A stretch of DNA of 64,000 nucleotides from an uncultured Thermoplasmata archaeon (GTDB lineage Archaea; Thermoplasmatota; Thermoplasmata; RBG-16-68-12). The stretch lies in NCBI GenBank assembly GCA_963768855.1, contig CAVYJM010000006.1:736001-800000 (forward strand), read 5' to 3'. Under the pieces are notes generated by a model, which saw only the letters and a list, made by a program, of their open reading frames with translations, was not told the DNA's origin and ran no database searches. A program made the position numbers and the translations under genes. Each line of letters begins with the position of its first letter. The first letter of the stretch is position 1. Below are positions 33,415-64,000 of the stretch, piece by piece.

Positions 33415-34863
33415 ATGGCACACGCAAGGCTCACGGTCCTATCGCGCGACGAAATCGAGGCTATCCACGGCGCCACCCTGACGCTTCTCGAACGGGTGGG
33501 CGTCAACGTCCGGGAACCGAGCGCCCTCCGGCTTCTCGTGGATGCGGGTGCGGTCCACGAGGAGGGGACCGAGCGAGTCCGGATACCCGAGCCGTTGCTT
33601 ATGGAGGCCGTCCGTGGCGTCCCGAAGCAATGGACGTGGCATGCCCGGGAGGCCTCGAAGAGCTTCCGGCTCGGCGACGGGGGCCGCACTCGCCTGGGCC
33701 CCGGTTCCGCATGCACGAACATTGTCGACTACGCGACCGGGCAGGCCCGTGCGCCCACCGAGAAGGACGGCGACGACCTCGTGCGGTTGATGGATGCCCT
33801 CGAGTTCGCCGACATCAACTATACGCCGGTTTCCCTCGGCGCCTCCTCGGATTCCTCCGGGTACCGCGAGGTCGCCACGCTCGTGCGGGACCTCCGCAAC
33901 ACGTCGAAGGTCTTCGTGGGTCCCTCGTACGACGGGACCATGGCGAGGGAGGGTCTCGAGATCGCGAAGCTTCTGGCCGGCGGTGAGGAGGCCCTCCGCA
34001 AGCGGCCGATGATGGCGGGATACTGCGACCCCGTCAGCCCGCTGACCCACGACCGCATGATGACGGAGACCCTCCTCGAGTATGCGCGGTGGGGACAGCC
34101 CGTGTTCTTGATGTGCCTCGATCTCGCGGGCGCATCCGCCCCGGCCAGCCTCGCGGGAACCCTGGTGCAGCAGAACGCGGAGATCCTGAGCGGAGTGCTG
34201 ATCGCATTCCTGGTCAATCCGCAGACCCCGGTCGTCTACGGGAGCGTCAGCGGGACGATGGACATGAAGGCGGGAAACGCGGCGGTGGGCGGTCCGGAGT
34301 TCGGGCTCATGAGCGCCGCCTCGGTCCAGGTCGCCCACTTCTATGGCTTGCCTTGTTCCACGGGAGGGCAGTCCGACGCGAAGATCCATGATGCCCAGGC
34401 GGCGTTCGAGAAGGGCGCCTCGCTGCTCGCCTCCATGCTCGCGGGCGCCGACATGGTCGACCTCTACTTCGGCTCCTATGAAGGGTTCAACGCGACGAGT
34501 CCAGAACAGATCCTCATCGATCACGAGATCGCGGGCTACGCCCACCGCTACGCCCGCGGGATCGAGGTCGACGAGAGCAGCCTTTCCCTCGATCTGATTG
34601 GAACCGTGGGGCCGGGGGGTAGCTTCCTGAAGGATCCCCGATCGCTCCGGGATACGATGTCTCGGATGAGGACGGAGTGGTATCTCCCCCGGCTGTTCGA
34701 CCGGAAGGTCCCGGACCCGACCGCGCCGCGCAAGACGGTCCTCGAGATCGCCCATGAGGCCGCTGCGGCGATCCTCCGCGAGCACGTTCCGACGCCGCTC
34801 GACCCGGAACTCCTGAAGGAGGCGAACGCGATCCTCCAGCGGATCCGGAAACAAGCGGCGTGA
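33415..34863 (+). CDS. mttB: Trimethylamine methyltransferase (MttB) superfamily protein, non-pyrrolysine (copy 1)
   Basis: LSRDEIEAIHGATLTLLERVGV, PVSPL, AGASAPASLAGTLVQQNAE, GGPE and YGLPCSTGGQSDAK; no in-frame TAG. Confidence 0.9.
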   Translation: MAHARLTVLSRDEIEAIHGATLTLLERVGVNVREPSALRLLVDAGAVHEEGTERVRIPEPLLMEAVRGVPKQWTWHAREASKSFRLGDGGRTRLGPGSACTNIVDYATGQARAPTEKDGDDLVRLMDALEFADINYTPVSLGASSDSSGYREVATLVRDLRNTSKVFVGPSYDGTMAREGLEIAKLLAGGEEALRKRPMMAGYCDPVSPLTHDRMMTETLLEYARWGQPVFLMCLDLAGASAPASLAGTLVQQNAEILSGVLIAFLVNPQTPVVYGSVSGTMDMKAGNAAVGGPEFGLMSAASVQVAHFYGLPCSTGGQSDAKIHDAQAAFEKGASLLASMLAGADMVDLYFGSYEGFNATSPEQILIDHEIAGYAHRYARGIEVDESSLSLDLIGTVGPGGSFLKDPRSLRDTMSRMRTEWYLPRLFDRKVPDPTAPRKTVLEIAHEAAAAILREHVPTPLDPELLKEANAILQRIRKQAA

Positions 34864-34951
34864 ATGGCACTCCGTGCTTAGGCTGACCGAAATCTTAAGC
34901 CAAGACACCGCATCCTCTCAGGAAAGGCCGGGAGGCGATTCGGTGGTATCG

Positions 34952-36127
34952 ATGCAACACGGGGCCTCGACGACGCGGAGAAGGAAAGCCGGAGACCGAT
35001 TAGCGGCGCTGCGCGCGGTCGATCGACCCCTCCATCGTGCTGCCACCTTGCCCGGGTCGTTCTTCAGCGATCCCGATGTGTTCGCACGGGAAAACCGGGC
35101 GCTCTTCCAGCGCTCGTGGATGTGCGTGGGGCGGGAGGACGAGATTCCCCATCTGGGCGACTTCCGCACCTACGAGGTCGGAGGATCCGGCGTCTTCGTA
35201 CTGCGAGACACGGATGGCCGCCTCCGCGCATTCCACAACGTGTGTCGCCACCGCGGCACGCGACTCCTCGAGGACGCCTCGGGGAGCGGGCTGAGCGTCA
35301 TCCGGTGTCCCTACCACGCCTGGACCTACGACCTGAAGGGCCTCCTCGTCGGCGCCCCCCACATGGAGGGGGCCGAGGAATTCCCCCACGAAGACTATGG
35401 CCTGTACCCTGTCCGCGTCGAGACATGGCGCGGCTTCCTGTTCCTCAGCCTCAGCGGGAACGCGGAACCCCTGAAGGACTACCTCGGCGAGTTCGTGGAC
35501 CGGGCCGCTCCATATCCCTTGGAGCGTCTCCGGCGGGCTCACCGGTACGTGTACGAGATCGCCGCCAACTGGAAGCTCGTCGTCCAGAACGCGAACGAAT
35601 GCTATCATTGCCCGGGAATCCACCCGCAGCTCGTGCGGCTCACGCCCTATCGATCCGGGGAGGAGGACCTGAGGAAGGGACCCGTGTTCGGAGGATGGAT
35701 GGATTTCGTGGACGGGGCGCGTACCCTCACGCCGGACGGGCGCACGCCCCGCCGGACGTTCCCCGGTCTCTCGAAAGAAGACCTCGGACGGGTGTACTAC
35801 TATGTCCTGTACCCGAGCAACTTCCTCAGCCTCCTGCCCGACTACGTCACCCTGGACTGGTTCATCCCGCTCTCCGCCGACCGCACGCGTCTCGTCTTCG
35901 ATCTCTACGTCGACCGGGACGAGGGTGACGCGGCGACGGACGCGATGGACTTCTGGGACACGACGAACCGCCAAGACTGGCACATCTGCGAGATGGCGCA
36001 CCTCGGCTCCCGGACGATCGCCTATACGCAGGGCCGCTATAGCAGCGAGGAGGAGGTCGTTCACCTCATCGACCGGTACTATCTCAAGCGGATGGGGCTG
36101 CTCCCGCGGGCCGGCCGAAGGTCCTAG
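34952..36127 (+). CDS. Rieske non-heme iron oxygenase alpha subunit (choline/glycine-betaine/stachydrine monooxygenase-like)
   Basis: Rieske CRHRG...CPYHAW, ANWK, mononuclear Fe NECYHC..IH and DWHICE. Confidence 0.9.
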   Translation: MQHGASTTRRRKAGDRLAALRAVDRPLHRAATLPGSFFSDPDVFARENRALFQRSWMCVGREDEIPHLGDFRTYEVGGSGVFVLRDTDGRLRAFHNVCRHRGTRLLEDASGSGLSVIRCPYHAWTYDLKGLLVGAPHMEGAEEFPHEDYGLYPVRVETWRGFLFLSLSGNAEPLKDYLGEFVDRAAPYPLERLRRAHRYVYEIAANWKLVVQNANECYHCPGIHPQLVRLTPYRSGEEDLRKGPVFGGWMDFVDGARTLTPDGRTPRRTFPGLSKEDLGRVYYYVLYPSNFLSLLPDYVTLDWFIPLSADRTRLVFDLYVDRDEGDAATDAMDFWDTTNRQDWHICEMAHLGSRTIAYTQGRYSSEEEVVHLIDRYYLKRMGLLPRAGRRS

Positions 36128-37056
36128 CCGCCTTTCGTGGCTCCGCCGCGGCGCTTCAGGGCAGGGTTCAGGATTTCCTCGATCCCGTACCCAAGCATGG
36201 CGAACCCCAGCACGAGGACCGTGATGCAGATTCCGGGCGGGAGGAACCACCACCACTTCCCGGTCAGCATCGCACTGGCGGTGTAGGCGTAGTTGACCAT
36301 CTGGCCCCAGGTCTCGACGCCCTGCGGCCCCAGCCCGAAGAAGGAAAGGAACGCCTCCGTGAAGATCGCGCTCGAGACCGTGAGCACGGCCTCGGCCCAG
36401 ACGAGGGGCATCACGTTGGGGAGGATGTGACGAGCGAGGATGTATGCCTTCCCCGCGCCGACCGCCCGTGCGCGTTCAATGAACTGACGTTCCTTCAGGG
36501 ATAGCACCTGGGATCGGATGACGCGAGTCGTCGTCGGCCAGCTCACGAGAGCGATCGCGAAGACGATGGTCGCGAGGCTGTTGCCCAGGATGGACACGAT
36601 GACCAGCACGAACGGAAGCCACGGGACCACGAGGAAGAAGTCCGTGATCCGGGAGAGGATCTGGTCCGTCACCTTCCCGTAGTAGCCGGCGATCAGACCA
36701 AGGGACGTCCCGAGGATCATCGCGGCCAAGGATGCCACAAAACCAATGAGCAGGGAGATCTGGCTCCCGTAGACGATGACGTTCAGGATATCCTTCCCGA
36801 AGTGGTCCGTCCCGAGGAGGTGGGCGCTGGACGGCGGAAGGTCGTTCGGATACAGGGTCAGGAAGCTCTGGTAGGGCCCCACCAAGTAGGGAGCGAAGAC
36901 GGCCAGGACAACGAAGAACACGATGATGACCATCCCGGCCAAGGACAGCTTGTTGCGCAAGATCTGAATGAAGGTCTTCTTGCCCCGCGCGAGGGTTGCC
37001 AGAAGACGCTCCCGAAAAAGGGAGTAACTATCCGGTGTCGCGGTCGCGGTCCCCAT
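36124..37056 (-). CDS. ABC transporter permease (OppC/DppC)
   Basis: LLGTDHFGKD, RSQVLSLKERQFIERARAVGA, HILPN and WWWFLPPG. Confidence 0.9.
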   Translation of the reverse strand: MGTATATPDSYSLFRERLLATLARGKKTFIQILRNKLSLAGMVIIVFFVVLAVFAPYLVGPYQSFLTLYPNDLPPSSAHLLGTDHFGKDILNVIVYGSQISLLIGFVASLAAMILGTSLGLIAGYYGKVTDQILSRITDFFLVVPWLPFVLVIVSILGNSLATIVFAIALVSWPTTTRVIRSQVLSLKERQFIERARAVGAGKAYILARHILPNVMPLVWAEAVLTVSSAIFTEAFLSFFGLGPQGVETWGQMVNYAYTASAMLTGKWWWFLPPGICITVLVLGFAMLGYGIEEILNPALKRRGGATKGG

Positions 37057-37059
37057 GGA

Positions 37060-38067
37060 TCAGGTCTCCTGCACGCGCGGATCGAGGAACATGTAGAGCA
37101 CGTCCGCGACCGCGTTGGCAATCACGACCCCAATTGTTGCGATGAGGAACACCGCGGACAGGACGGGGAAGTTCTGGTTCTGGGTCGCGGTCCACGTGAG
37201 AAGGCCGATGCCGCTGATGTTGAACACGGTCTCGATGACGATCACGCCACTTACGACCCAGCCAAAGTACAGGGCAGACGCGGTGACGACGGGCAGGCGA
37301 GCGTTCGGCAGGGCGTGCCATCGGAGTTGCTGCCTCTCGTTGAGGCCTTTTGCCGCCGCGGTCACCATGTAGTCCTCCGGGAGGACCTCCGTCAGGGAGT
37401 TCCGGAGGGTCAGGGAGAACCAAGCGACGTTCGTGATGACGAACACGAGGATCGCGGGGATGTAGTAGTAGAGCGTGGCGATCGAGTCTTGGATTGGCTC
37501 TCCGACGAGATGGAGCATGCCCGGCTGCGGGAAGAGTCGGACCTCATACGTGAATGCGAAGACGATGACGAGAGACACCCAAAACGAGGGCATGGAATAC
37601 CCGGCTAACGTGGAGAGGGTGATCGTGACATCGGTCTTCGAACCGCGTCTCCAGCCGGACACCCGGCCGAGGACCATGCCCGCCCACATCGTGACCACGG
37701 TCGCGATGCCAATGAGGGTCAGGGTGACACTCAGTGCGGGGGCAATGATCTGCACGACGGGTACGCCGCCCAGGGGCTTGGTCAGTGAGGTTCCTAGGTT
37801 CCCCTGGAGGAGATTACCCATGTAGATGACGAACCTCTGCAGGATTGGCTTGTCGAGCCCCCATTCTGCGATGAGCTGCTTTCGGATCGCGCACTCGCCG
37901 CCGCCTCCGACAGAGCTGTTGCCTCCCCCGCCGCACCCCCTCGGGGTCACGCTGAACGTGGGGTCTCCGGGCAGGACCTGAAAGATGAAGAAATTTAGGG
38001 CGGTGATGAGGAAGATTGTCACCACGATGAGGACGGCTTTCCTCAGGAGGTACCTCCGGAAGTTCGT
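37060..38067 (-). CDS. ABC transporter permease (OppB/DppB), probable ACG start
   Basis: WGLDKP, GNLGTS, MPSFW, EDYMVTAAAKGL, HALPNA and VIETVF. The conserved N-terminal RYLLRK lies upstream of the first GTG. Confidence 0.88.
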   Translation of the reverse strand, partial: TNFRRYLLRKAVLIVVTIFLITALNFFIFQVLPGDPTFSVTPRGCGGGGNSSVGGGGECAIRKQLIAEWGLDKPILQRFVIYMGNLLQGNLGTSLTKPLGGVPVVQIIAPALSVTLTLIGIATVVTMWAGMVLGRVSGWRRGSKTDVTITLSTLAGYSMPSFWVSLVIVFAFTYEVRLFPQPGMLHLVGEPIQDSIATLYYYIPAILVFVITNVAWFSLTLRNSLTEVLPEDYMVTAAAKGLNERQQLRWHALPNARLPVVTASALYFGWVVSGVIVIETVFNISGIGLLTWTATQNQNFPVLSAVFLIATIGVVIANAVADVLYMFLDPRVQET

Positions 38068-38112
38068 TCTAGCGCCTCCTCAGGGTTTCCTCATCACCTT
38101 GGTTCTCCGTTG

Positions 38113-40995
38113 CTACGGCTTCGGCGGGAGTTCGATCTTCGCCTCCGCTTCCTCCTTCTTCTTTCGCCGTCTCATCATGTACACAGCCAGGATGGCCGCA
38201 GCCACAATGACCACCACCGCGACGATCGCCCCAATGATTAGCGGGGTGAACAGCGGTTCCGGCGTGGTCGTTGGGGCAAGGGCGAAGTTGACAACCGCCG
38301 CCGAGCCCGAGGTGACCGAGATGCCCGTCTTCGACTGGGTAGCGTAGCCCGTTGCGCTGGCGTTGACCGTGTAGGTCCCGGGTTCCACGCTGATGTTGAA
38401 CTGTCCCGCGCTGTTCGTGGAGCCGGAGGTCTGCTGCCCGTTGCTCGCGGTCACATAGATCGCGGCGGCCGCAATCACGGCGTTCGTTTGCGAGTCCGTG
38501 ACGGTCCCGGTGATCCATCCGAGAGCGGGGGTCAGCGAGAAGTCCTTCGTGGTCGTCGCGTTCGCGGTTATCGTCACGGACTGCGCTGCCGACGTGACGT
38601 AGAAGTGCGCCGAAGCGACCGCATCGTACGTCCCCGGGGCCAGCGTGATATTGTATAACCCGCTGGCCGGCGTCGTTGATGAGGACGCGCCGCCCGGCAT
38701 CGTGGCGACGACCGCGTCCTTGATCGGGCTGCCAGAGGTGTCTTTCACGACTCCCGCTAGCCAACCGATGATTGGCGGCGCCTCAGTCACGTTCAGGTAC
38801 ACCGGACCTTGCGTCGTCACGCCCGTGTATCCGTCCGACACGGTCGCGCGGATCGTGTAGTTGCCCGTGCGATTCCAGTAGTGCGTACCCGTTGTGCTGC
38901 CTCCGGAGGCGGTGCAGTTCGTCACCGTCTGGTCGTGCGGGCAGTAGGTCGTGGTCCCATCGCCCCAGTCCCACGTGAAGTTCAGTGTGTCCGGGGGGAC
39001 CGTGGGGTCCGTCGACGTGGCGGTGAGGCTCAGGCTCGTGTTCACGATCCAGCTGGCGTAGGTCGGATAGTGGATCACGGGCGAGGTCGGCGGCTGGTTC
39101 TGGACGATCGCAGAGCAGGTCGGGCAGGTGATGTTGAAGAACAGCGGGTTGGCACCCCAGAACGCGTTCATCTGCATGTACGGGTCGTGGTTCCAGTCGC
39201 CCCAGTTCGTCCACACGTCCGTCCGCATCGCCCATTCCCCGTACGGATAGACGTAGATGATGTACGGGGCCATGTCGTAGTTGATCTTCTGCGCCGCGTG
39301 GACGTCTTTGATCCGCTGGTTCAGGTCGAAGTCCGCGAGCTGCGCCAGATAGTAATGGTTGTACGTCGCGTTGTTCCAGAAGTTGTCATTCCAGTCGTCC
39401 AGCGTCCAGGACGATTGCATGGACAGGATGTAGTTCGGGTCGGGGTCCGCGGACCAGTACCAAATGTACATCTCCACCGCGCCGGCATACACGTCGGCGC
39501 TCAGGATGTCCTCCGTCGTCTCGGGTTTGAGGACGATCTGGATCCCGATCCGGGCGTACTCTTGCTGGAGGTACTGCGCCGTGGCGTACTCCTCGGGGAA
39601 ATCACCCGAGGGACGGGTGGCGAGGGTGAATGCGATCTTCGTCCCGGCCTTGATCGTCTTCGTCACGTTCGGCGGATCCGTCATCTGATAGGAGCCCCAG
39701 CCCGTCTGGTAGTCCACGACGATGTCGTTCCTGGCCTCCCGGTAGCCGTTCCCGAACGTCCCGCCGCTCCACAAGTCGTATCCGGACTGATTGAGAAGCG
39801 CGTTCGCTGCCTGGATGTTGTAGGTTAGATTGTCGCCACCCGCGACCGGGTCATACCACCACTGCGGCGTGACGGGGGAGACCAGCGTGTCGCCCCGCTT
39901 GCCCTCGCCATCGTAGAAGTGCTGGATGATGTAGTCCTTGTTCGTGGACATGGCCATCGCCCGCCGGACGTTGATATCGAAGCGGGCGAGGTTGAGAGAG
40001 CTCCCCGGTTTGTCATACTGGCTGATCCCAATCTCGTTCCACTCCTGGATGACCTGCAGGCCCGACTGGACGAGGATGTTCGTCTGGCCTCGAGCGGGTT
40101 CGATCGTCGACGGCGAGAACTGAGCCAGCTGGACACCTCCGCTCAGGAGGTTCGAGGCGAGGGAGTTCGGGTCGCTGAAGAACTTGAGGTAGATGTTCTG
40201 GATGTGGATATTGTCCGACCCGCTGACGTTCGCCCCGACTGCATGGTAGGAGGGGTTCCTCGACACGTGGATGTATCCGCCCGGGCTGAGCGCCGTCAGG
40301 AACTGGTTGTAGATGTTGGAGTCGGCGATGAAGGGGCCCGTGCCGATCGGGTTCGCGTTCGCGTAGGGGATGCCCCCAGGGCAGCCGGCGGTCCCGCCCG
40401 CGCACGATGGGTCGACCGTCCTCCACTGCGCTTGCTGCACGATCGGACCGAAGATGTCCTCGCCCGCGACGAAGGGGATCTTGAAGTAGAGGATCACCTG
40501 CCACGGGTTCGTGGAGGAGATTACGGCGCCGCAGTGGGGTCGGGTCTTCGAGGTACACTGCACGACCTGGTTGAAGTACGGCTCGTATGCCCACAGGGAC
40601 GCGAGGTTCTGGCTGTCGTAGTTCCAGGTGAACGCGACGTCGGCGGCCGTGAGATCCGTGCCGTCCGACCACTTCACGCCCTGGCGCACGGTGTAGGTCC
40701 AGTTGAAACCCGCCGCATCGTGCGTGGCACTCGTGATGATGTTGGGAATGAACGTCCCTTGTCCATCGAATGCAAACGGATAGTCGTACAGTAGGCCGTA
40801 GAGGAAGTAGGATGGGTCATTGATCCCGCGGTACGGATTCAAGTAATCGATTGTCTGCAGGAAGCCGATTGTGAGGTCCGGCGCCGGTACGGCTTTCGCG
40901 GTGATCGCGAGCCCGACTGGCCCGACCACCAAGGTCTGCAGCAACAACGCGACGGTCACTAGTCCACAAATCAACGCGACGTTCAAGGACTTCGT
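38113..40995 (-). CDS. Family-5 ABC substrate-binding protein with PKD-like and two carboxypeptidase-regulatory-like domains and a C-terminal TM anchor
   Basis: YTVRQGVKWSDGTDLTAADVAFT, IGTGPF, NVRRAMAM; PKD-like FTWDWGDG; repeated G.ITG.V.D...GTYTV.AS units; TM then RRRKKK. Start ACG 40995 proposed; ATG 41061 and TTG are alternatives. Confidence 0.86.
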   Translation of the reverse strand, partial: TKSLNVALICGLVTVALLLQTLVVGPVGLAITAKAVPAPDLTIGFLQTIDYLNPYRGINDPSYFLYGLLYDYPFAFDGQGTFIPNIITSATHDAAGFNWTYTVRQGVKWSDGTDLTAADVAFTWNYDSQNLASLWAYEPYFNQVVQCTSKTRPHCGAVISSTNPWQVILYFKIPFVAGEDIFGPIVQQAQWRTVDPSCAGGTAGCPGGIPYANANPIGTGPFIADSNIYNQFLTALSPGGYIHVSRNPSYHAVGANVSGSDNIHIQNIYLKFFSDPNSLASNLLSGGVQLAQFSPSTIEPARGQTNILVQSGLQVIQEWNEIGISQYDKPGSSLNLARFDINVRRAMAMSTNKDYIIQHFYDGEGKRGDTLVSPVTPQWWYDPVAGGDNLTYNIQAANALLNQSGYDLWSGGTFGNGYREARNDIVVDYQTGWGSYQMTDPPNVTKTIKAGTKIAFTLATRPSGDFPEEYATAQYLQQEYARIGIQIVLKPETTEDILSADVYAGAVEMYIWYWSADPDPNYILSMQSSWTLDDWNDNFWNNATYNHYYLAQLADFDLNQRIKDVHAAQKINYDMAPYIIYVYPYGEWAMRTDVWTNWGDWNHDPYMQMNAFWGANPLFFNITCPTCSAIVQNQPPTSPVIHYPTYASWIVNTSLSLTATSTDPTVPPDTLNFTWDWGDGTTTYCPHDQTVTNCTASGGSTTGTHYWNRTGNYTIRATVSDGYTGVTTQGPVYLNVTEAPPIIGWLAGVVKDTSGSPIKDAVVATMPGGASSSTTPASGLYNITLAPGTYDAVASAHFYVTSAAQSVTITANATTTKDFSLTPALGWITGTVTDSQTNAVIAAAAIYVTASNGQQTSGSTNSAGQFNISVEPGTYTVNASATGYATQSKTGISVTSGSAAVVNFALAPTTTPEPLFTPLIIGAIVAVVVIVAAAILAVYMMRRRKKKEEAEAKIELPPKP

Positions 40996-41071
40996 CCGAA
41001 ACCCTCCCGTCCGCGCCGGTCCTTGCGGCCCGACGTCTTTAAGTGATTGACGGACCCCCATAAAAGGGTAC

Positions 41072-41081
41072 TGTCATGACA
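41072..41081. promoter_or_regulatory. Perfect palindrome TGTCATGACA next to the substrate-binding protein promoter
   Basis: 10-bp self-complementary site immediately upstream (minus strand) of a CCCTTTTAT box. Confidence 0.5.
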
Positions 41082-41188
41082 CTAGTACTCCATGCGTGCA
41101 AGAGCGTCCTTGCGAGCTTTTTGTCTGCGTCGATAGTACGCTTTCGTGCGACACAACCGGACGTATCCGAGGGCCATCCCTTGAGGGA

Positions 41189-41273
41189 TGCGTGGGCCAG
41201 GATTCGAACCTGGGAACCCCTGCGGGAAGGGATCTTGAGTCCCTCGCCTTTGACCTGGCTTGGCTACCCACGC
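41189..41273 (-). tRNA. tRNA-Leu(CAA)
   Basis: GCGTGGGTAGCCAAGCCAGGTCAAAGGCG-AGGGA CT CAA GA TCCCT-long variable arm-CCAGGTTCGAATCCTGG-CCCACGCA. Confidence 0.95.
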
Positions 41274-41355
41274 ACGGTGCGCGGAGCGTGGCCTTCTCCT
41301 ATAATCTTTGTCGCGGGCCGGCGGGGCCCCGAAGCGTTTTTGTCGTGGCGCCGCC

Positions 41356-41754
41356 ATGGCCCGCCGGGGTCGCATCGTGGTCTCGTACTTCTCGAAAGAG
41401 TTCTTCGACGCCCTGGCGAGCGCGTTGAACGCAGATGCCGAGTGGATGAAGAAGTCGTCGAATTCGACCTTCAAGGCCGTCATCACCCTCACGGACCGTT
41501 CGAAGTCGTACCTGCTCGACGTCGTGAGCGGACGGGTGGCGGTGAGCGAGGTCGCGCCGGACGTGCCCGCCGACTTCAAGTTCGAGGGGCCGTACGACGC
41601 CTGGGTCATCTTGGGCAAGGGCGAGAAGGACTTCCAGTCGCTGGTGATGGGAGGCAAGATCAAGTTCCGGGGATCGATGCCCAAGGTGATGGGCATGATG
41701 GGCCAGTGGAACCGGCTCATCAAGGTGGCTCAGGAGCTCCCGAAGGAGTTCTAA
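41356..41754 (+). CDS. SCP2 sterol/lipid-carrier domain protein (paralogue 2)
   Basis: ADFKFEGPYDAW...LVMGGKIKFRGSM...LPKEF. Confidence 0.8.
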   Translation: MARRGRIVVSYFSKEFFDALASALNADAEWMKKSSNSTFKAVITLTDRSKSYLLDVVSGRVAVSEVAPDVPADFKFEGPYDAWVILGKGEKDFQSLVMGGKIKFRGSMPKVMGMMGQWNRLIKVAQELPKEF

Positions 41755-41919
41755 TCGGAGCTCACGGTCGCTCCGGTGCTGAACACCTTCACGCGCTCAA
41801 CCGGATCGATTCGAAAAACGGTTCCGGCTTGAACCTTCGCCCGTCGGCGACGAGCCGCTCAAACGATTAAATAGCGAGGGACCCATTCGCATCCCAGATC
41901 GGGGAGACCGGGGGAGACC

Positions 41920-44650: not shown

Positions 44651-44706
44651 GCGGCCACGACCGATGCCGGGCGCTTAAACCTTGACGTCGCCTCGAGCCT
44701 CGCGGC

Positions 44707-54677: not shown

Positions 54678-54729
54678 CCTCGATGTCGCCCAGTGGCTCG
54701 GAGGCTCGAATTGACAGGAGGTGAAGGAC

Positions 54730-56160: not shown

Positions 56161-56164
56161 GTCC

Positions 56165-57622
56165 TCACGCCGCCTTCAGGAGCTGCTTGCTCCCTTCGGC
56201 AACGACTCGTGCCAAGTCCTCCTCGACGTCGCGGTCCAGCGGCGTCACCACATGCTCCCGCAGCAGCTCGCGCACCTTCTCGCGGGCGGTATCCTGGATG
56301 GGTCGGATGCCCTCCGTCCTCGCCCGCTCCATGGTCCGCTTGTCCCACAGCGGGGAGTTGCGCATCTCACCCTCCCGGAGATACTTCATCGTGTGACGCT
56401 GCGCGAGGAAGTTGCCCATCGGGCCGACCTTGTCGATCACGTCGAGCGCGAGGCGGTCCTCGTCCACCTCGATTCCTCGCACGATGCGGAAGATGTCCGA
56501 GTAGATCTCGTCGTCGATGACCGCCATCTCGAGGGAGGCGGCGTTCTCCCACGCGCCCCCGATCCCGGAGAGGTTGTCCGCGCCCGCGAGCGCGGGCGGA
56601 AGGGCCGCCATCATCCGCTCGAGGCCGATCTGCAGATCCCATCCGTTCGCGTCCGTCGTGACCCCGTAGACGTCCGCCGTCATGTGGTAGCGGTGGGCGA
56701 TCTGGACGGTCGCCGCGGAGACGAGCCCGAGCTCGGGCAGGCCCCATAGGTTCTTCCCGGAGCGGAGGTCGAGGAAGCTGAGCCGCCCCGAGTACTGGGT
56801 CGGCAGCTTCGGGTCCACGGTCTGGAGGAGCATCACGCCCGCCAGGAGCTCCGCGTTCTGCTGCGCCAGCCCTCCCGCCAGGGAGAGCGGAGCGGTACCT
56901 CCGCCGATCGGGCAGGGCACGACGTCGACGGGGATGCCGTTCTCGGCCGCGAGGACCATGACGTCGCACACGTGGGTGTCGTAGGTGAGCGGGCTGCTGG
57001 GCGATCCATACAGAGTGAAGAAGGGGCGCCTCTGCAGTGCCTCCGCGCCGCCAGCCACGCACGCGCCCATCCGAAGCAGGACGTCCATCTCGGCCGTCCG
57101 CAGGGCGTAACCGGGGACACACTTGGACGTGTTCTTGATCATCGCCTCCACGGTCTTGATGACCAGGAGGGGGCCGGGTGCGTCCGTTGCGACGACGAGG
57201 GGCGATGCGGTGTGGCAGTTCGGGAGCGCGTCCTGGAGGCGCGTGCTCTCCTCGACGTCCCTCAGGGTGGAACTTCGGATCATCCCGGTCTCGGAATCCA
57301 GGATGGCTGGGTTCCCGCCGAGGGCGTGCGCGAACGTGTGCTCCCCGTCGAACGTGACGTCGTTCTTCGGGTCTCGGGCGCAGTAGGTCCCATAGCGGGG
57401 GATGTGGCGAATCGCCTCTTCGACGACGGCCCGCGGGAAGGTCAGGACGTTTTTCCGCTCGGGGTGCCGCAGGGCGCCGAGTTGCTCGAGCCGCCGCCTC
57501 GCGTCCTCGCCGTCGAACCGCGCGCCGGTCCGTTCCAGCAACCGGAGGGACGCGTCGTGGATTGCCTCCACTTGGTCGTCCGTCAGCACCTTGAGACGCG
57601 CCGGATTCCGAATCCCCTGCAT
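56165..57622 (-). CDS. mttB: MttB-superfamily methyltransferase, non-pyrrolysine (copy 5)
   Basis: LTDDQVEAIHDASLRLLERTG, PSSPL, GGTAPLSLAGGLAQQNAE, GLPE and RYHMTADVYGVTTDAN. Confidence 0.9.
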   Translation of the reverse strand: MQGIRNPARLKVLTDDQVEAIHDASLRLLERTGARFDGEDARRRLEQLGALRHPERKNVLTFPRAVVEEAIRHIPRYGTYCARDPKNDVTFDGEHTFAHALGGNPAILDSETGMIRSSTLRDVEESTRLQDALPNCHTASPLVVATDAPGPLLVIKTVEAMIKNTSKCVPGYALRTAEMDVLLRMGACVAGGAEALQRRPFFTLYGSPSSPLTYDTHVCDVMVLAAENGIPVDVVPCPIGGGTAPLSLAGGLAQQNAELLAGVMLLQTVDPKLPTQYSGRLSFLDLRSGKNLWGLPELGLVSAATVQIAHRYHMTADVYGVTTDANGWDLQIGLERMMAALPPALAGADNLSGIGGAWENAASLEMAVIDDEIYSDIFRIVRGIEVDEDRLALDVIDKVGPMGNFLAQRHTMKYLREGEMRNSPLWDKRTMERARTEGIRPIQDTAREKVRELLREHVVTPLDRDVEEDLARVVAEGSKQLLKAA

Positions 57623-57742
57623 GCTCTCGCCTCTCGCGGGTCCCGCGCGCCGCATGCGCGGGTCGCAGGACCCTTCGCGACGGAGGTAGGGGGCTATGAA
57701 GGCTGAGCTCTTACAACTTGGGAAGAAAAGCGACGGCGAGGC

Positions 57743-58672
57743 TCAGGCGTCCCGAGGCAAGGCGTCTTCGAATCCGCGGTAGAGGTTCTCCAGGAGGGAC
57801 GGCACGAGGTCGGGCGGCGTGGCCCGCAACCCGCAGTCGGGCAGGACGAAGGCGAGGTGCTCGGGTGCAGCGGTTCGCACGATCTCCCGCAGCAGAGCCG
57901 CAACCTCGGAAGGTTTCATGACCTCCTCCGGTCGAGAGACCTGGACGTCGATGCACCCCGCCCCGAGGCGAAGGTCGCGGTCCTCCCAGGATCGAGGTTC
58001 GAGCAGGGCGCGGTTCTCCCGTTCCGCCTTGCCCGCGAAGGCCAGGCTCAGGACGGAGATCCGCTCCAGCCGGAACAGCGCGTCGAGGGCCTTCGTGCGC
58101 GCGAGCCCCCCGCAGACATGAAGGCTCATCCGTTCGCGCGGCAACTCAGAAGCGAGGAGATCGAGCCGGTGGATCTCCGGTCCGTAGTCCCGCATGCCCT
58201 GAGAAAGGATCGGCTCATCGAGCTGGAGGCTCGCGCCCCGGCGGCCGAGTTCGCGGGCGATGGGCCCGAGGGCCTCCGTGAGGTCGTCGTGGAGGGATGG
58301 GTCCATCGGCCCCCGGTAGGACGGGCCGGCACCGCTCGCCGCACAGGCGAGGAGGAAGGTCGCGGGTCCCGTGAGGCTCACCTTGAACGCGGCGCCTGGA
58401 TACAGGGACCGAAGTCGGTCGAGGTCGCGGACCTTCGTGAAACGGGCGGGGTCCTCCATGGGCCGGATGCGGCCCGTGATGCGGGGGACCCCGCGCCCTT
58501 CTTGGATTCCCGGGATCTCCGTGTACAGCGACAGCATGTCCCCGCGTTGCTCGCCGTCCGTCAGGAGCTCGATGCCGTGGGCGCGTTGCATTTCGACCGC
58601 GGCCTTCAGGGTCTCGTCCGGAGCACCGCCGAAGGGCGGAAGGCTGCCGATCAGGGTCAGGACGGGTCGCAT
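57743..58672 (-). CDS. Single-domain cobalamin-independent methionine synthase family protein (core MetE / MesA-like)
   Basis: IGSLP, LTDGEQR, LQLDEP, Zn ligands SLHVCG and PDCGL, GCID; 309 aa, no N-terminal folate-binding half. Confidence 0.8.
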   Translation of the reverse strand: MRPVLTLIGSLPPFGGAPDETLKAAVEMQRAHGIELLTDGEQRGDMLSLYTEIPGIQEGRGVPRITGRIRPMEDPARFTKVRDLDRLRSLYPGAAFKVSLTGPATFLLACAASGAGPSYRGPMDPSLHDDLTEALGPIARELGRRGASLQLDEPILSQGMRDYGPEIHRLDLLASELPRERMSLHVCGGLARTKALDALFRLERISVLSLAFAGKAERENRALLEPRSWEDRDLRLGAGCIDVQVSRPEEVMKPSEVAALLREIVRTAAPEHLAFVLPDCGLRATPPDLVPSLLENLYRGFEDALPRDA

Positions 58673-58866: not shown

Positions 58867-58950
58867 ATGCCGGGCGTGTGTACGTTCTCACATCCGATCA
58901 GGGTTCGAGTCCGTTCCGCCCCGCGTGGTCCGCGGTCCCGAAGGACGTAG
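58867..58950 (+). CDS. Possible 27-aa upstream ORF (leader peptide) MPGVCTFSHPIRVRVRSAPRGPRSRRT
   Basis: GGAGG-N8-ATG; stops 20 nt before the metV-like start. Confidence 0.3.
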   Translation: MPGVCTFSHPIRVRVRSAPRGPRSRRT

Positions 58951-58970
58951 GTGTCGCCAGGAGGTGGAAC

Positions 58971-59390
58971 ATGGAGACGAGCGAGCACGTGCCGGAAATG
59001 CTGGAGCCGATTGGGAAAGTCCTGCGTCGGCATCCCAAGGTGAACCGCCAACTCAATCGGGCCCTCGCGCCGTTTGAGAACTCGGCGAAGGTGCTGATGT
59101 TCAGCTGCAACATGTGCGGTCAATGTCTCCTCCACGAGAACGGCTACACCTGCTTGATGAACTGCCCCAAGCAGCTCCGGAACGGCCCCTGCGGCGGCGT
59201 CCGGATGAACGGGCACTGCGAGGTGAAGGCGGACATGGAATGCGTCTGGCTGAAGGCGGAGCGGCGCTCGCGCCGCTTCCCCGGACGCTACCTCTTCCTG
59301 CGGATTCATGCGCCCCTCGACTGGCGGAGGAAAGGAAGCTCCGCCATTCTGAACGCAATCGCAGGGTGGCCGGGTAACGGGAAGGAATGA
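58971..59390 (+). CDS. MTHFR-associated Cys-rich subunit (MetV-like)
   Basis: CNMCGQCLLHENGYTCLMNCPKQLRNGPCGG...CEV....ECVW. Confidence 0.85.
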   Translation: METSEHVPEMLEPIGKVLRRHPKVNRQLNRALAPFENSAKVLMFSCNMCGQCLLHENGYTCLMNCPKQLRNGPCGGVRMNGHCEVKADMECVWLKAERRSRRFPGRYLFLRIHAPLDWRRKGSSAILNAIAGWPGNGKE

Positions 59391-60427
59391 CCATGCTCCC
59401 CGCCGAGCCCCAGCGGGGCCGCTTCGAGCGCGCGCTGCGCTCGGGCCGTCCCGTGGTGACGTGTGAGATCGGCAGCCCGGATGGCGCGGATCCCGCCGAC
59501 ATCCGCAAGCGCGCGAAACTCGTGCGCGACTGGGTCGACGCGGTCAACGTCCCCGACAACACGGGCGGGGTCGTCCACGCGTCTCCCCTCGCGGCGTGCG
59601 CGATCCTCGTCCAGGAGGGAATCGACCCGGTCCTGCACATGACCTGCCGGGACCGGAACCGCATGGCCCTCCAGAGCGACATGCTCGGAGCGGCCCTCCT
59701 CGGAATCCGCAACATCCTGTGCCTCACCGGAGACCACATGATCCACGGCGATCAACCGGAGACCAAGCCGGTCTATGACGTCGACTCCGTGATCCTGCTC
59801 GAGATCGTGAACCACCTGACCCACCAGGGCAAGTATCTCAGCGGCCGAGAGATCGATCCTCCGCCGGACCTGTTCCCCGGCTGCGCCGCGGAACCCTTCG
59901 CCCCTCCCTACGAATACCGACCGCTCCGCCTCCAGAAAAAGGTCGAGGCGGGCGCCCAGTTCGTCCAGACGCAGATCGTGTTCAACGTGGACCGGTTCCG
60001 CGAGTACATGGGCCGGGTGCACGACCTCGGGGTCGACAAGCGGGTCCCGATCCTCGCGGGAGTCGCCCCGATCCGATCCGTCAAGGCCGCGACCTTCATG
60101 CGGGACGAGGTCCCGGGCATGGAAGTCCCGGACCGCCTCGTGCGCCGCATGGCGCAGGCGGGCGACGACAAGAAGAAGCGAGAAGCCGAGGGGATCGCGA
60201 TCTGCGTCGAGATCATCGAGGAGATCCGGAAGATCCCGGGCGTCGCGGGGTTCCACATCATGCCGATCAACTGGGAATCCGCGGTGGCCAAGATCTCCCG
60301 CGAGGCGCACCTGCAGCCCGCCATCGCCTCCCCGAAAGCGCCTGCCGATGTGGCGAAGGCCGTGGCGCCCGCCACGTTCGTCGCGCCCGCATCCGCCGTG
60401 TCTCTGTCGCTCCAGCCGAAGTCCTAG
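59387..60427 (+). CDS. metF: 5,10-methylenetetrahydrofolate reductase
   Basis: VTCEIGSP, NVPDN, HMTCRDRNRMALQSD, LCLTGDH, KVEAGAQFVQTQ and GFHIM. Confidence 0.9.
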   Translation: MTMLPAEPQRGRFERALRSGRPVVTCEIGSPDGADPADIRKRAKLVRDWVDAVNVPDNTGGVVHASPLAACAILVQEGIDPVLHMTCRDRNRMALQSDMLGAALLGIRNILCLTGDHMIHGDQPETKPVYDVDSVILLEIVNHLTHQGKYLSGREIDPPPDLFPGCAAEPFAPPYEYRPLRLQKKVEAGAQFVQTQIVFNVDRFREYMGRVHDLGVDKRVPILAGVAPIRSVKAATFMRDEVPGMEVPDRLVRRMAQAGDDKKKREAEGIAICVEIIEEIRKIPGVAGFHIMPINWESAVAKISREAHLQPAIASPKAPADVAKAVAPATFVAPASAVSLSLQPKS

Positions 60428-60438: not shown

Positions 60439-61347
60439 ATGAGGACCAATTTGTCGTCTGCAAAGAAGACTGTCGTGATCAGCCCGGACGATCCGTTCGT
60501 CGTGATCGGGGAACGGATCAACCCCACGAACCGCAAGAAGCTGGCCGAAGAGCTCCGCCGGTTCGACTACACGCGGGTGAAGGCCGACGCGTTGGCCCAG
60601 GTTGCGGCCGGCGCCCAGGTCGTGGATGTGAACTGCGGCGTGCCCGGGGCCGACGAGCCCGCGATCCTCAAAGGCGCCGTGGAAGTCCTCCAGGCCACGA
60701 TCGACGCCCCGTTGTCCCTTGACTCCTCCGTCGTGGAGGCGCTCGAGACCGCCCTCCCCGCGTACAAGGGGAAGGCGCTGATCAACTCGGTGACGGGCGA
60801 CGATCGCCTCCTGGACCGCCTCCTCCCGGTGGTCAAGAAGCACAATGCCGCGGTGATCGGCATCACGCACGACGAGTCCGGGATCAAGAACGATTCGAAG
60901 GCCCGGCTCGCGGTCGCCGAGAAGATCGTGAAGCGAGCGATGGAGCACGGGATCCCGAAGGAGGACGTGATCATCGACCCCATCTGCATGCCCATCGGCG
61001 CGAACACGAAGCTCGGCGCGATCACGCTGGATACGATCCGGCTGGTGAGGCAGGAGCTCGGGGTCAACATCTCCATCGGAGCGGGCAATGTCGGCTTTGG
61101 CCTGCCCGACCGGCCGACCCAGACTGCCGCGATCATCCTGCTCGGGATGTCCTTGGGGCTCACCGCCTCGATCGCGAACCCGCTCGAGCACGAGATCTAC
61201 CGCGCGGTGCTCGCCGGGGACCTCATGATGGGCCGGGACTCGTTCGGCATGAAGTGGATGGGCTACTACCGCAAGCGCGAGGCGGAGGCCAAGGCCGCCG
61301 CCGCGGCGGCGGGAGCAGCCGCGGAGCCGCCGAAACCCGTCGCGTGA
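60439..61347 (+). CDS. Pterin-binding methyl-corrinoid:tetrahydrofolate methyltransferase (MtgA/AcsE/MetH folate-domain-like)
   Basis: IGERINPT, VDVNCG, LSLDSS, LINSV, IIDP and GAGNVGFGLPDR. Confidence 0.88.
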   Translation: MRTNLSSAKKTVVISPDDPFVVIGERINPTNRKKLAEELRRFDYTRVKADALAQVAAGAQVVDVNCGVPGADEPAILKGAVEVLQATIDAPLSLDSSVVEALETALPAYKGKALINSVTGDDRLLDRLLPVVKKHNAAVIGITHDESGIKNDSKARLAVAEKIVKRAMEHGIPKEDVIIDPICMPIGANTKLGAITLDTIRLVRQELGVNISIGAGNVGFGLPDRPTQTAAIILLGMSLGLTASIANPLEHEIYRAVLAGDLMMGRDSFGMKWMGYYRKREAEAKAAAAAAGAAAEPPKPVA

Positions 61348-61429: not shown

Positions 61430-62785
61430 GTGGCGAAGTCGTCCAAACCCAGGGTCGGCGCGAAGGGCTCGTCCGAGTACTACTGGAAGAAGTACGAGCA
61501 GTACTTCCCGAAGTATTTCTGGGCCGACGAGACGCGGCTCGCGAACATCGTCCTCAAGAGCGCGAAGGGCTCGACGCTCGTCGACATGGACGGCAAGGAG
61601 TACATCGACCTCACGAGCCAATGGTCGACGAACAACCTCGGGAACGTCCATCCGGAGATCCTGGCGGCCACGGTCGACGCGCTCGAGCGGTACGGCTTCC
61701 TGATCTACTTCATGAACCCCCACCTCCCGATGATCGAGCTGGCGGAGAAGCTCCTCGAGATCCGGCCTTCCCCCAACCTCACCCGGGTCTTCCTCGAGCT
61801 CTCCGGAACCGGAGCGTCCGAGGCCGCCGTCAAGCACGCAATCGAGGGCACGCATCGCCCGCTGATCCTGAGCTTCATGGGCCAGTACCACGGCCTGAGC
61901 ATCGGGGCGACCGCCTTCGGGAGCTTGGGCGCGCGGTGGCGGCGATACTGGGAGGCGTTCTCCGGGGGAGCCGTCCACGCCCCCTATCCGCGGCCCTATC
62001 GCAAGCCGGAAGGGATGACGGACGCGGAGTACGGCGACTTCTGCCTCACGTTCCTGGAGGACCAGATCCTCCGCTATGTTGCGCATCCCGAGCGGATCGC
62101 GGGCCTCATCCTCGAGCCCGTGGCGCTCGAGGCCGGGGTCTGGATTCCGCCCGTCAACTTCGTGCGCGGGCTGAAGAAGCTGGCAGAGCAGTACGATTGG
62201 TTCTTCATCGCGGACGAGGTCGAGGCGGGACTCGGCCGTTGCGGGAAGATGTGGAGTATCGAGCACTTCGGCGTGTCTCCGGACATGATCTCGATCGGCA
62301 AGGCGCTCGGCGGCGGCCTCATGCCCATCTCCGCGGTCCTGGGGACCGACCGCGCGATGAGCGAACACGAGGTCGTCGCGGGGACGACGTTCGGCGGCCA
62401 TCCAGCCGCCTGCGTGGCGGCGAGCACCGCGATCGGCATCATGGTGCGGGACCGCATCGCCGAGAGGTCCGCGCGGCTCGGGGCCAAGGCGCTGAAGCGC
62501 GTGAAGGAGTGGGAGGATCTCCCCCTCGTCGGGGAGGTGCGAGGACTCGGCCTGGCGATCGGGGTCGAGCTCGTCTCGAGCAAGAAGTCGAAGGCCCGTG
62601 CTCTGAAGGCGACGCGATCCGTGTTCTTCGACTGTGTCGAGCACGGTGTCGTCCCGCTCTACGACTATGACATGAACGTTCTGCGAATCCAGCCGCCGCT
62701 CACGATCGAAGAAGCTTATCTGGATCGCGCCCTCGACGTGATGGAGGAATCTCTCCAGCGCGCGTCTCGTCGGGGAGCGGATTAG
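61430..62785 (+). CDS. Class III PLP aminotransferase (GabT/putrescine aminotransferase-like)
   Basis: DGKEYID, GNVHP, SGTGASE, YHG, ILEPV, FIADEV..GLGRCG, GKALGGG and TTFGGHP. Confidence 0.9.
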   Translation: MAKSSKPRVGAKGSSEYYWKKYEQYFPKYFWADETRLANIVLKSAKGSTLVDMDGKEYIDLTSQWSTNNLGNVHPEILAATVDALERYGFLIYFMNPHLPMIELAEKLLEIRPSPNLTRVFLELSGTGASEAAVKHAIEGTHRPLILSFMGQYHGLSIGATAFGSLGARWRRYWEAFSGGAVHAPYPRPYRKPEGMTDAEYGDFCLTFLEDQILRYVAHPERIAGLILEPVALEAGVWIPPVNFVRGLKKLAEQYDWFFIADEVEAGLGRCGKMWSIEHFGVSPDMISIGKALGGGLMPISAVLGTDRAMSEHEVVAGTTFGGHPAACVAASTAIGIMVRDRIAERSARLGAKALKRVKEWEDLPLVGEVRGLGLAIGVELVSSKKSKARALKATRSVFFDCVEHGVVPLYDYDMNVLRIQPPLTIEEAYLDRALDVMEESLQRASRRGAD

Positions 62786-62812
62786 GTCTTCCCCTCGTCT
62801 GGGCGGGTTTCT

Positions 62813-64000
62813 TCAGGCCTTCCGGTGGGGCGGGTCGTAGAATGGCCGCTCGACGACCGTGGCGGGGGCGCGCTTCCGTTCCCACTCGACCTCGACTTCG
62901 ATCTCGAGAGTCGTGCCAAGGTGGGCGTACTCGGAACGTACCGTCGCGATTCCGATGTACTTCTTGAGGGTCGGGGACCAGCAGCCGCTCGTGCCCCAGC
63001 CCACCTGGCGGAAACCGGAGTAGATGGGGACCTTCGACGTCCACGGATCCGACGGCGGGGTGGGAGGCAGCCCCAGGTCGGTGAAGTACTTCGAGGCGGT
63101 CGGCCAGTCGATTTCGATCCCGACGGTCCGACGAGGCACGCCTTGTCGTAGCTCCTGCGCGAGCGCGGGCTTTCCGACGAACGGTCCCTTGTTCATCGAG
63201 ACCGTCCAGTCGAGGCTGAGTTCGAAGGGAGAGTACCGTTGGGCGTCGATCAGCGCGCTCCTCGAGTGGATGTAGTCCACTTCGGCGAGGACGAATCCCG
63301 CCTCGATGCGGCAGACGTCCATGGCCACCTGGCCAGCCAGCTGCATATGGTGCGGTCCGCCGTACTTCATGATCGAGTCGAAGAGCTGCTCGGCCTGGTC
63401 GCGATCGACCCAGACCTCGTAGCCGAGGTCACCCGTGTATCCCGTGCGGGAGATCTCCACGGGGATTCCCTCGATCTTCGCCGTGGTGAATCGGAAGAAC
63501 TTGAGCTTGTCCAGTGCGGAGCCTGCTGCGTCCCGCAGGATGGCCTTCGAGCTGGGTCCCTGGAGGGAAAGCGTCCCGATGTCCTCCGACACATCCTCCA
63601 CGTGGACGTCTAGGCCAATCCCGTTGTCCTCGATCCACTTAAGGCTCGGCTGGGCCGAGGTGAGCCGGAAGCTGCCGTCGCCGTAGTTCCAGATCGTGCC
63701 GTCGTCGACGACCTTCCCCCGGTCGTCGCACCACGGGGTGTAGACGACGTGCCCTTTCGAGAACTTTCGGAGGTCCCGCGTCACGATCTTGTTGAGCACG
63801 CGCTGCGCGTCCTTGCCGTCGATCCGATACTTGTAGAGCGGGGATACGTCGATCAAGCCCGCGGTGTGTCGGATCGCGTAGTACTCCATGTAGGGGACGA
63901 CGGAGTACGAGCTCGCGGAGAGGTAGCCGGACCAGGCCTGCCATTCCCAGCTCTGGCACAGCGGAAATGTCCGCGAGTGAAAGGGTGATCCCTTCAGCAC
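62813..64000 (-). CDS. GcvT-family aminomethyltransferase / folate-binding protein (start at or beyond the window edge)
   Basis: EYYAIRHTAGLIDVSPL, DDGT, SLQGP, SRTGYTGDLGYE, RIEAG and SPTLKKYIG. Confidence 0.9.
   Translation of the reverse strand: MLKGSPFHSRTFPLCQSWEWQAWSGYLSASSYSVVPYMEYYAIRHTAGLIDVSPLYKYRIDGKDAQRVLNKIVTRDLRKFSKGHVVYTPWCDDRGKVVDDGTIWNYGDGSFRLTSAQPSLKWIEDNGIGLDVHVEDVSEDIGTLSLQGPSSKAILRDAAGSALDKLKFFRFTTAKIEGIPVEISRTGYTGDLGYEVWVDRDQAEQLFDSIMKYGGPHHMQLAGQVAMDVCRIEAGFVLAEVDYIHSRSALIDAQRYSPFELSLDWTVSMNKGPFVGKPALAQELRQGVPRRTVGIEIDWPTASKYFTDLGLPPTPPSDPWTSKVPIYSGFRQVGWGTSGCWSPTLKKYIGIATVRSEYAHLGTTLEIEVEVEWERKRAPATVVERPFYDPPHRKA

Follow-up and report, generated by a model that had tools for sequence, protein, structure and literature searches.

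In soils and wetlands, methylated amines rank among the main osmolytes and precursors of methane, and non-methanogenic demethylators compete with methanogens for them. The MttB superfamily of methyltransferases has very many members, of which, to our knowledge, only about six have a known substrate. In Eubacterium limosum, MtcB, MtpB, MtyB and MthB share MtqC, MtqA and RamQ in quaternary-amine:tetrahydrofolate (THF) systems. Two further systems are documented by structures, namely MtgB/MtgC/MtgA of Desulfitobacterium hafniense (Protein Data Bank (PDB) 2QNE, 9YCE) and MttB/MttC/MtbA/RamA of methanogens (PDB 7XCL). In archaea, pyrrolysine-free mttB and mttC without mtaA or mcr have been reported in metagenome-assembled genomes (MAGs) of RBG-16-68-12 and UBA10834 (Zinke et al., bioRxiv 10.1101/2020.03.09.984617; Rasmussen et al., PMC11264602), and the Asgard Atabeyarchaeia and Freyarchaeia carry non-pyrrolysine MttB-like genes beside a corrinoid protein, with a proposed feed to THF or tetrahydromethanopterin (H4MPT) in non-methanogenic methylotrophy (PMC11291895). 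The main texts of two studies devoted to the order RBG-16-68-12 do not mention MttB (PMC9038741, PMC9239135). Here, we describe a cluster of five pyrrolysine-free mttB genes and their partner genes in a stretch of 64,000 nucleotides from an uncultured wetland archaeon of the Thermoplasmata (positions 736001-800000 of contig C6 in genome G000), hereafter the window.

Genes were called by Pfam and NCBIfam profile searches and compared with the structures of MtgB (9YCE) and MttB (7XCL/7XCM); the profiles confirm each of the genes that a first-pass annotation, made from the letters alone, had named (Table 1). All five proteins, MttB1 to MttB5, belong to the MttB superfamily (PF06253 / COG5598), with PF06253 scores of 236-316 bits against a cut-off of 25, and align over their full length with the solved MtgB and MttB structures. 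Judged by gene content and co-occurrence, the system resembles that of E. limosum: pyrrolysine-free first methyltransferases (MT1) would load one corrinoid protein, from which a pterin-binding second methyltransferase (MT2) would serve THF, with an activator of the RACo/Ram type. It differs in that the host is apparently an aerobic archaeon without acetyl-CoA synthase (ACS), so that methyl groups could not feed acetogenesis, in that nine of its ten paralogues lack a conserved arginine, and in that the cluster additionally encodes a MetVF of its own as well as a core MetE. The D. hafniense system is matched by full-length homology (147-270 bits, expectation values (E) down to 3e-79), by the absence of pyrrolysine, by an MtgC-like MttC and by an MtgA-like methyltransferase (MeTr), whereas the MtgB motif Y97/R312/H348/F356 is not kept. 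With the methanogen system the cluster shares the MT1 fold and the corrinoid protein families, and MttB3 and MttB4 score best against it, but there is no UAG, no PylS, no coenzyme M (CoM) methyltransferase and no Mcr here. The Asgard hosts live anaerobically and possess Wood-Ljungdahl genes and MtrH, in contrast to the present host, which lacks Mch and ACS. Since the gene type has already been reported in the same lineage (MttB without pyrrolysine alongside a corrinoid protein, and neither MtaA nor Mcr), the gain is incremental. What seems to be new, and is apparently not stated in the two earlier reports on these Thermoplasmata, is the presence of a full set of partner genes that co-occur strictly, a host that is aerobic and apparently dependent on B12, and the fact that nine of the ten paralogues have lost the conserved arginine; the assignment of a second MetVF and a core MetE to the module likewise seems new.

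The genes are held together by their distribution. Among the 79 genomes of the order, MttB occurs in 13, all of one genus, and is absent from the 42 genomes belonging to other genera; copy numbers range from 2 to 13 per genome and reach at least seven in 10 of the 12 positives other than G000. When the 37 other genomes of the genus are divided into 12 MttB-positive and 25 MttB-negative ones, RACo and MeTr are each present in 11 of the former and none of the latter, and a cluster-type MetF (at least 70% identity) and core MetE are each present in nine of the former and, again, none of the latter. The single positive genome that makes the exception for RACo and MeTr is only 53% complete. Within the genus, the MttBs, RACo, MeTr, the second MetF and core MetE show an all-or-none pattern, while a housekeeping MetF (45% identity, C11:168004, adjoining FolD) is near-universal. 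Ranked by Fhs identity, the closest relatives (73-92%) are without exception MttB-positive; another four positives stand as far away (66-71%) as the negatives, so that several losses or several gains are needed to account for the pattern.

The gene order RACo-MttB3-MttC-...-MttB4-MttB5-core MetE-MetV-MetF-MeTr is kept in independent MAGs at 65-91% protein identity, with a ratio of non-synonymous to synonymous substitution rates (dN/dS) of 0.09-0.28, and the contig has its synteny in common with MAGs of Thermoplasmata that are of the RBG-16-68-12 / Ca. Angelarchaeales type. Orthologues of MttB1 (58-65% identity) stand beside MttC or RACo in the related loci L006 and L008-L011, those of MttB3 (68-89%, dN/dS 0.09) are found in L002-L008, and those of MttB4 (82-87%) in L003 and L004. 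The start of MttB3 overlaps the stop of MttC by 4 bases, which suggests that the two form one operon. An exact-sequence look-up of MttB1 found no record.

The partner proteins themselves fall into the expected families. MttC carries the DxHxxG motif of corrinoid proteins as DIHEIG at residue 146 and matches the MtgC model at 195 bits. Its longest open reading frame (ORF) overlaps that of a divergently transcribed flavin adenine dinucleotide (FAD)-dependent oxidoreductase head to head by 97 bases (52888-52984); the first ~40 residues of the MttC frame look non-coding, at least one true start of the pair lies further in, and that of MttC is probably downstream of 52984. The activator, in which PF00111, PF17651 and PF14574 all score above their cut-offs, is by its domains (an N-terminal [2Fe-2S] ferredoxin, a middle and an ASKHA ATPase domain) a putative reductive activator of the RACo/RamA type, with cysteines at positions 38, 44, 47 and 81. 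MeTr, of the MtgA/MtqA/AcsE type, scores 276 bits against NCBIfam NF005719, over the cut-off of 259. Core MetE, with 309 residues, is a predicted zinc thiol methyltransferase without the N-terminal folate-binding barrel; it retains the zinc ligands (H185-x-C187 and C280), stays under the cut-off of NF002119 (112 bits, cut-off 258) and is a candidate methyl-corrinoid:homocysteine methyltransferase.

RACo forms a clade of Thermoplasmata-labelled proteins at 98 to 56% identity. The next named relatives, at 41-45%, come from Bathyarchaeia, Korarchaeota and Nitrososphaerota, and the best match elsewhere in the class reaches 40-43%. A recent bacterial origin of RACo has no support, the nearest named relatives outside the clade being archaeal; the term 'bacterial-style', under which the cluster had first been described, therefore fits its design, which is that of the bacterial quaternary-amine:THF systems, and not its origin. 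RACo-like proteins are also encoded in MttB-negative genomes of other families of the order (G009-G015, G073, G074 and G077), where the matches cover query residues 175-604 only, at 37-38% identity, and fall short of the N-terminal ferredoxin; these proteins presumably serve another corrinoid enzyme.

Pyrrolysine plays no part in this system. None of the window MttB frames contains an in-frame stop and therefore none is a pyrrolysine gene, as had been proposed at the outset, with the one qualification that MttB2 is split in the assembly. Pyl334 of Methanosarcina MttB aligns to Asp322 of MttB3, five residues past the column of MtgB R312; the TIGR02369 (MttB) match of 380 bits is below the cut-off of 525; no tRNA-Pyl or tRNA(CUA) was found in the genome, and no PylS scored above cut-off in the 38 genomes of the genus. 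An MttB of the pyrrolysine type is ruled out by the missing in-frame UAG, the aspartate in place of Pyl334 and the lack of PylS and tRNA(CUA). MttB4 is the paralogue closest to the pyrrolysine-type enzyme and MttB2 the one most like MtgB.

Table 1. Features of the window with their positions, strands and supporting profile matches; scores against structures are in bits.
Feature	Position	Strand	Profile evidence	Further details
Two Opp/Dpp-type ATP-binding cassette (ABC) ATPase genes	30599-33324	+	ABC_tran + oligo_HPY	Directly upstream of MttB1
MttB1	33415-34863	+	PF06253, E 3e-94	MtgB (9YCE) 263; MttB (7XCL) 225
Rieske non-haem iron oxygenase, alpha subunit	34874-36127	+	Rieske + Ring_hydroxyl_A	Starts 11 bases past MttB1
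OppC-like and OppB-like ABC permeases, 982-residue family-5 solute-binding protein	36124-41061	-	Pfam	
SBF-like transporter, EamA/DMT transporter, DUF6159 membrane protein	43739-46608	-	Pfam	Downstream of MttB2
MttB2	46685-48248	-	PF06253, E 5e-89 on 46685-47848	N-terminal piece 47781-48248; MtgB 270; MttB 196
RACo-type reductive activator	48947-50788	+	Fer2 + RACo_middle + RACo_C_ter	
MttB3	50757-52205	-	PF06253, E 4e-87	MttB (7XCM) 220; MtgB 211
MttC-type corrinoid protein	52202-52984	-	B12-binding_2 (PF02607) + B12-binding (PF02310), above cut-offs	
CrtI/PYROXD2-like FAD amine oxidoreductase	52888-54534	+	Amino_oxidase	Divergent from MttC
MttB4	54721-56160	+	PF06253, E 6e-70	MttB (7XCL) 205; MtgB 147
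MttB5	56165-57655	-	PF06253, E 4e-83	MtgB 208; MttB 198; downstream of core MetE, same strand
Core MetE	57743-58672	-	Meth_synt_2 (PF01717), 37 bits, cut-off 21	
MetV, Cys-rich Fe-S subunit	58878-59390	+	PF12225	
MetF, second methylene-THF reductase	59387-60427	+	PF02219	
Methyl-THF:corrinoid methyltransferase (MeTr, MT2)	60439-61347	+	Pterin_bind	
Class III aminotransferase	61430-62785	+	Aminotran_3	
GcvT-like folate-binding aminomethyltransferase	62813-64000	-	GCV_T + GCV_T_C	ORF complete at 64000

The genome (2.87 Mb in 24 contigs, 66% GC, estimated at 93.6% complete and 7.7% contaminated) is not that of a methanogen. Neither mcrA (MCR_alpha) nor Mch, the marker of the H4MPT pathway, was found in it, and the absence of mcr and of a CoM methyltransferase that had been noted for the window extends to the whole genome, where the sole URO-D match, at 419 bits, is read as HemE-like from its high score. 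Because a haem-copper oxidase subunit I is encoded on the same contig as the window and ACS is absent, the host is predicted to be an oxygen-respiring heterotroph, an aerobe rather than an anaerobe; the analogy with anaerobic bacteria drawn in the first-pass annotation is apt for the enzymes but not for the physiology. No acetyl-CoA synthase (CdhC) was found in the 38 genomes of the genus, and a Wood-Ljungdahl (AcsE) role of MeTr was rejected on this ground. Without ACS, methyl-THF cannot go to acetyl-CoA, and folate oxidation or biosynthesis is left instead. The THF route suggested at first remains plausible, given that MeTr scores over a curated cut-off and that MetVF is present in the cluster and FolD and Fhs, for which a check had been advised, in the genome. 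A precedent from aerobes can be seen in Sphingobium, whose O-demethylation pathway (LigM, MetF) depends on THF.

These findings point, with a probability of roughly 0.7, to a network for corrinoid-dependent methyl transfer in a Thermoplasmata archaeon that is aerobic and non-methanogenic; the network's catalytic steps, the direction of flux and, above all, its substrates are read from family membership and co-occurrence. In the proposed scheme, the pyrrolysine-free MttBs (five in the window, ten in the genome) would each methylate the shared Co(I)-MttC from a different small methylated compound, MeTr would move the methyl group from MttC to THF, and the cluster's own MetVF would oxidise methyl-THF to methylene-THF, from which FolD and Fhs, encoded elsewhere, would yield formate and ATP, or one-carbon units would enter biosynthesis. 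Core MetE, beside MttB5, would be a likely second outlet from methyl-corrinoid via homocysteine to methionine. RACo would re-reduce Co(II)-MttC to Co(I), a repair that an oxygen-respiring host should need often.

The same genes could be read the other way round, as a MetH-like methionine synthase split over MetVF, MeTr, MttC, core MetE and RACo, which makes methionine from one-carbon units of folate, with the MttBs as side inputs and with a mainly anabolic function in methionine and S-adenosylmethionine supply. Core MetE, the second MetF and MeTr are indeed all module-specific and adjacent, core MetE retains its His/Cys zinc ligands, and enzymes of the MeTr type are reversible in known systems (AcsE, MetH). 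Yet 25 members of the genus dispense with the module, so that it is no housekeeping methionine synthase; ten diverged MttBs under purifying selection, several of them beside transporters, speak for a broad substrate intake, beyond what the supply of methionine would call for; and in two MttB-positive genomes, G055 and G071, core MetE is missing although RACo and MeTr are present. Because so many relatives do without the module and ten MT1 genes come with transporters, we consider this alternative unlikely and prefer the methyl-transfer network fed by the MttBs.

Several observations weigh against that network. MttC scores 197 bits against TIGR02370, slightly under the cut-off of 215. For the oxidation of methyl-THF by MetVF in an aerobe, no electron acceptor was identified. 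CbiC, CobS and a FecCD/BtuC permease were sought in the genome and not found. No RNA run was found for the stretch. At the position of MtgB R312, nine of the ten paralogues carry residues other than arginine (S, L, M, D, L, C, S, L and M), and the glycine-betaine-binding aromatic residues of MtgB are not conserved in the paralogues. With regard to cofactor supply, the genome holds seven B12-binding domain hits, and none of the MttB-positive relatives has a FecCD/BtuC permease above cut-off (in G069 there is a 22-bit match only). To call the system 'complete', as was first done, was thus an overstatement.

A bolder version of the network would have an aerobic archaeon of soil or wetland that is unable to make B12 run a large methyl-harvesting net on an oxygen-sensitive corrinoid, with new classes of MttB substrates opened by the loss of the arginine in most of the ten enzymes and with the methyl groups split between oxidation on folate, by the dedicated MetVF, and methionine made directly by core MetE. 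We regard this version as doubtful; if true, it would be an undescribed aerobic archaeal form of corrinoid methylotrophy.

The substrates of the MttBs were addressed via the glycine-betaine site of MtgB, which consists of Y97, R312, H348 and F356; R312 binds the acid group and is invariant among the functionally characterised members, whose substrates are all acidic quaternary amines (PMC13080624). The substrate columns were anchored on HMMER alignments to 9YCE and 7XCL, and in the alignments to MtgB, at ~30-37% identity, loop positions are less certain than R312. Arginine at the R312 position is found in MttB2 only, one of ten paralogues; MttB1 has Ser and MttB5 Asp. The four site positions read S/S/L/F in MttB1 and G/R/D/S in MttB2, MttB3 to MttB5 keep none of the four residues, and the full motif occurs in none of the five window MttBs. 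An assignment of substrates by the MtgB motif failed, the motif not being conserved. An acidic quaternary amine is the probable substrate of MttB2, and the other paralogues, which lack the carboxylate-binding arginine, may act on something else. The earlier proposal of methylotrophy on several quaternary amines is not borne out by these columns, in that one window paralogue keeps the arginine and none the motif.

Taken further, most of the MttB paralogues might act on methyl donors other than betaines, such as non-acidic amines or sulfonium compounds, which we see as a serious possibility but short of probable. Apart from the near-universal loss of an arginine that all characterised users of acidic quaternary amines retain, MttB3 and MttB4 score higher against the trimethylamine enzyme MttB than against MtgB, and no betaine transporter of the BCCT or OpuA type adjoins any paralogue. 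Against this, loop alignments are uncertain at 30-35% identity and another residue could bind the carboxylate, so that a missing arginine or motif calls for caution over betaine substrates and would not disprove them; in addition, a GbcA-like Rieske enzyme adjoins MttB1, and betaine catabolism genes are enriched in the order (Diamond et al., PMC9038741). The ten diverged paralogues are test cases for new substrate specificities, and the moderate interest of the locus rests mostly on what these ten enzymes act on. The locus also places a strongly conserved corrinoid methyl-transfer set in one sub-lineage of the aerobic RBG-16-68-12, an order hitherto noted for copper monooxygenases and the use of peptides.

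Genome-wide, 12 MTTB matches resolve into ten distinct loci, two matches being the halves of MttB2 and one lying on a duplicate contig, C1; an initial count of eleven genes was corrected to ten for the reason that C1 duplicates part of C6. Most pairs of paralogues are 27-39% identical, with the exceptions of B3/B6 (66%), B3/B7 (49%) and B4/B10 (52%); identity to orthologues in other MAGs is 58-89%, at a dN/dS of 0.09-0.27. With paralogues diverged, orthologues conserved and dN/dS low, the duplications appear to be old and each copy maintained. The expansion is not unique, as a sample taken across the class includes two other Thermoplasmata families with 8-33 MttB candidates per genome.

A second MttC is encoded on contig C17 (L013:7452-8084), preceded by two MFS transporters and followed by MttB6 and MttB7. 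The image of five substrate modules funnelling into one carrier thus describes the window but not the genome, with its ten MttB loci and two MttCs. The MttC of C17 is 95% identical in protein sequence to that of the window, whereas the adjoining MttB is only 66% identical to MttB3, which suggests either gene conversion or that the carrier is far more tightly constrained than the methyltransferase. MttB8, also on C17 (L014:6719-8170), is flanked by a lysine-2,3-aminomutase-like radical SAM gene (1040-2482) and a GNAT acetyltransferase gene (8285-9178), a pair that resembles the AblA/AblB pair for N-acetyl-beta-lysine; a pyridoxal phosphate enzyme and a zinc alcohol dehydrogenase are encoded nearby.

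With MAGs, the question arises whether bacterial DNA has been wrongly joined to an archaeal genome. The contamination estimate given above would allow for it, as would the contig C1 (G000:C1:1-8129), which is a 96.3% identical copy of G000:C6:866847-874987 including one MttB gene, and the single frameshift in MttB2, probably itself an assembly error. On the other side, a full-length archaeal 16S rRNA gene (1494 bits) lies ~150 kb upstream of the window on the same 1.13-Mb contig, GC content is even, other studies have yielded at least ten Thermoplasmata MAGs with the same cluster on their contigs, and the nearest named relatives of RACo outside its clade are archaeal. Contig continuity, uniform GC and the recurrence of the cluster in independent MAGs exclude a bacterial chimera in practice, and we judge an artefact of binning or assembly to be extremely improbable. 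This bears out the initial view of the host as a non-methanogenic Thermoplasmata archaeon, given the archaeal 16S gene on the contig and the lack of mcrA, Mch and PylS. From the relatives of RACo, found at 56-85% identity on contigs labelled Thermoplasmata archaeon (including RBG_19FT_COMBO_69_17), and from the literature we infer that the order is RBG-16-68-12 (Ca. Angelarchaeales / Ca. Yaplasmales). The MttB proteins of the C1 and C6 copies are identical to each other, and C1 is probably a second strain variant in the bin, in line with the contamination estimate.

The MttB2 gene is split over two frames, with the switch at ~47930-47937 and one extra base at 47934. This base is missing in contigs of four public metagenome runs from four studies (wetland, freshwater sediment), and in four related MAGs (L004-L007) the pieces lie in a single frame; the frameshift is, for these two reasons, most likely an assembly error, a strain-specific mutation being less likely. 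Read without base 47934, the protein runs on as ...KQLLLLAPSRFRLYGR..., which fits the family, and all five MttB genes should presumably be counted as functional in the population. A second one-base difference, a base left out at window position 48268, occurs in run X3 only and lies upstream of the likely start of MttB2.

Several of the flanking genes encode transporters. MttB1 sits within an Opp-type ABC transporter locus, of which OppB, OppC and the family-5 solute-binding protein are a candidate substrate importer; the solute-binding protein carries PKD and CarboxypepD_reg domains, and the genes for it, OppB and OppC adjoin the MttC/MttB cluster in L006. The Rieske gene is beside transporter genes in L006 as well; among NCBIfam families it comes closest to GbcA but, at 211 bits, stays far under the cut-off of 670, which makes it distantly GbcA-like. 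The order MttB2, EamA, SBF-like transporter is kept in L004, L006 and L007.

Three further genes are treated as neighbours, being either not specific to the module or not syntenic in L007. The FAD amine oxidoreductase, whose best NCBIfam matches (CrtO and the CrtI family) are both below cut-off, was rejected as a module part, as orthologues at 73-78% identity occur in MttB-negative genomes. The GcvT-like protein, best matched by the C-terminal half of trimethylamine N-oxide demethylase (268 bits, below cut-off), and the aminotransferase have no support as module parts, for neither follows MeTr in L007; the GcvT-like gene listed in the first-pass annotation is thus present without being a conserved part of the cluster. 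Past the window (L012:144-7976, corresponding to G000:C6:800144-807976) lie two more CrtI/PYROXD2-like flavoprotein genes, followed by genes for a thiolase, a CoA-transferase of family III and a fusion of 3-hydroxyacyl-CoA dehydrogenase with enoyl-CoA hydratase; an acyl-CoA dehydrogenase is encoded at window positions 41920-43074. Together, these are suggestive of a beta-oxidation-type set beside the methyltransferases, which may serve the catabolism of carbon skeletons.

Finally, a tRNA-Leu(CAA) gene at window positions 41186-41274 (minus strand) lies inside the 5' part of an ORF on the plus strand (41076-41870). The very high conservation of residues 38-67 of this ORF in L004 is probably that of the tRNA, and the real protein, if any, would begin after ~41283.

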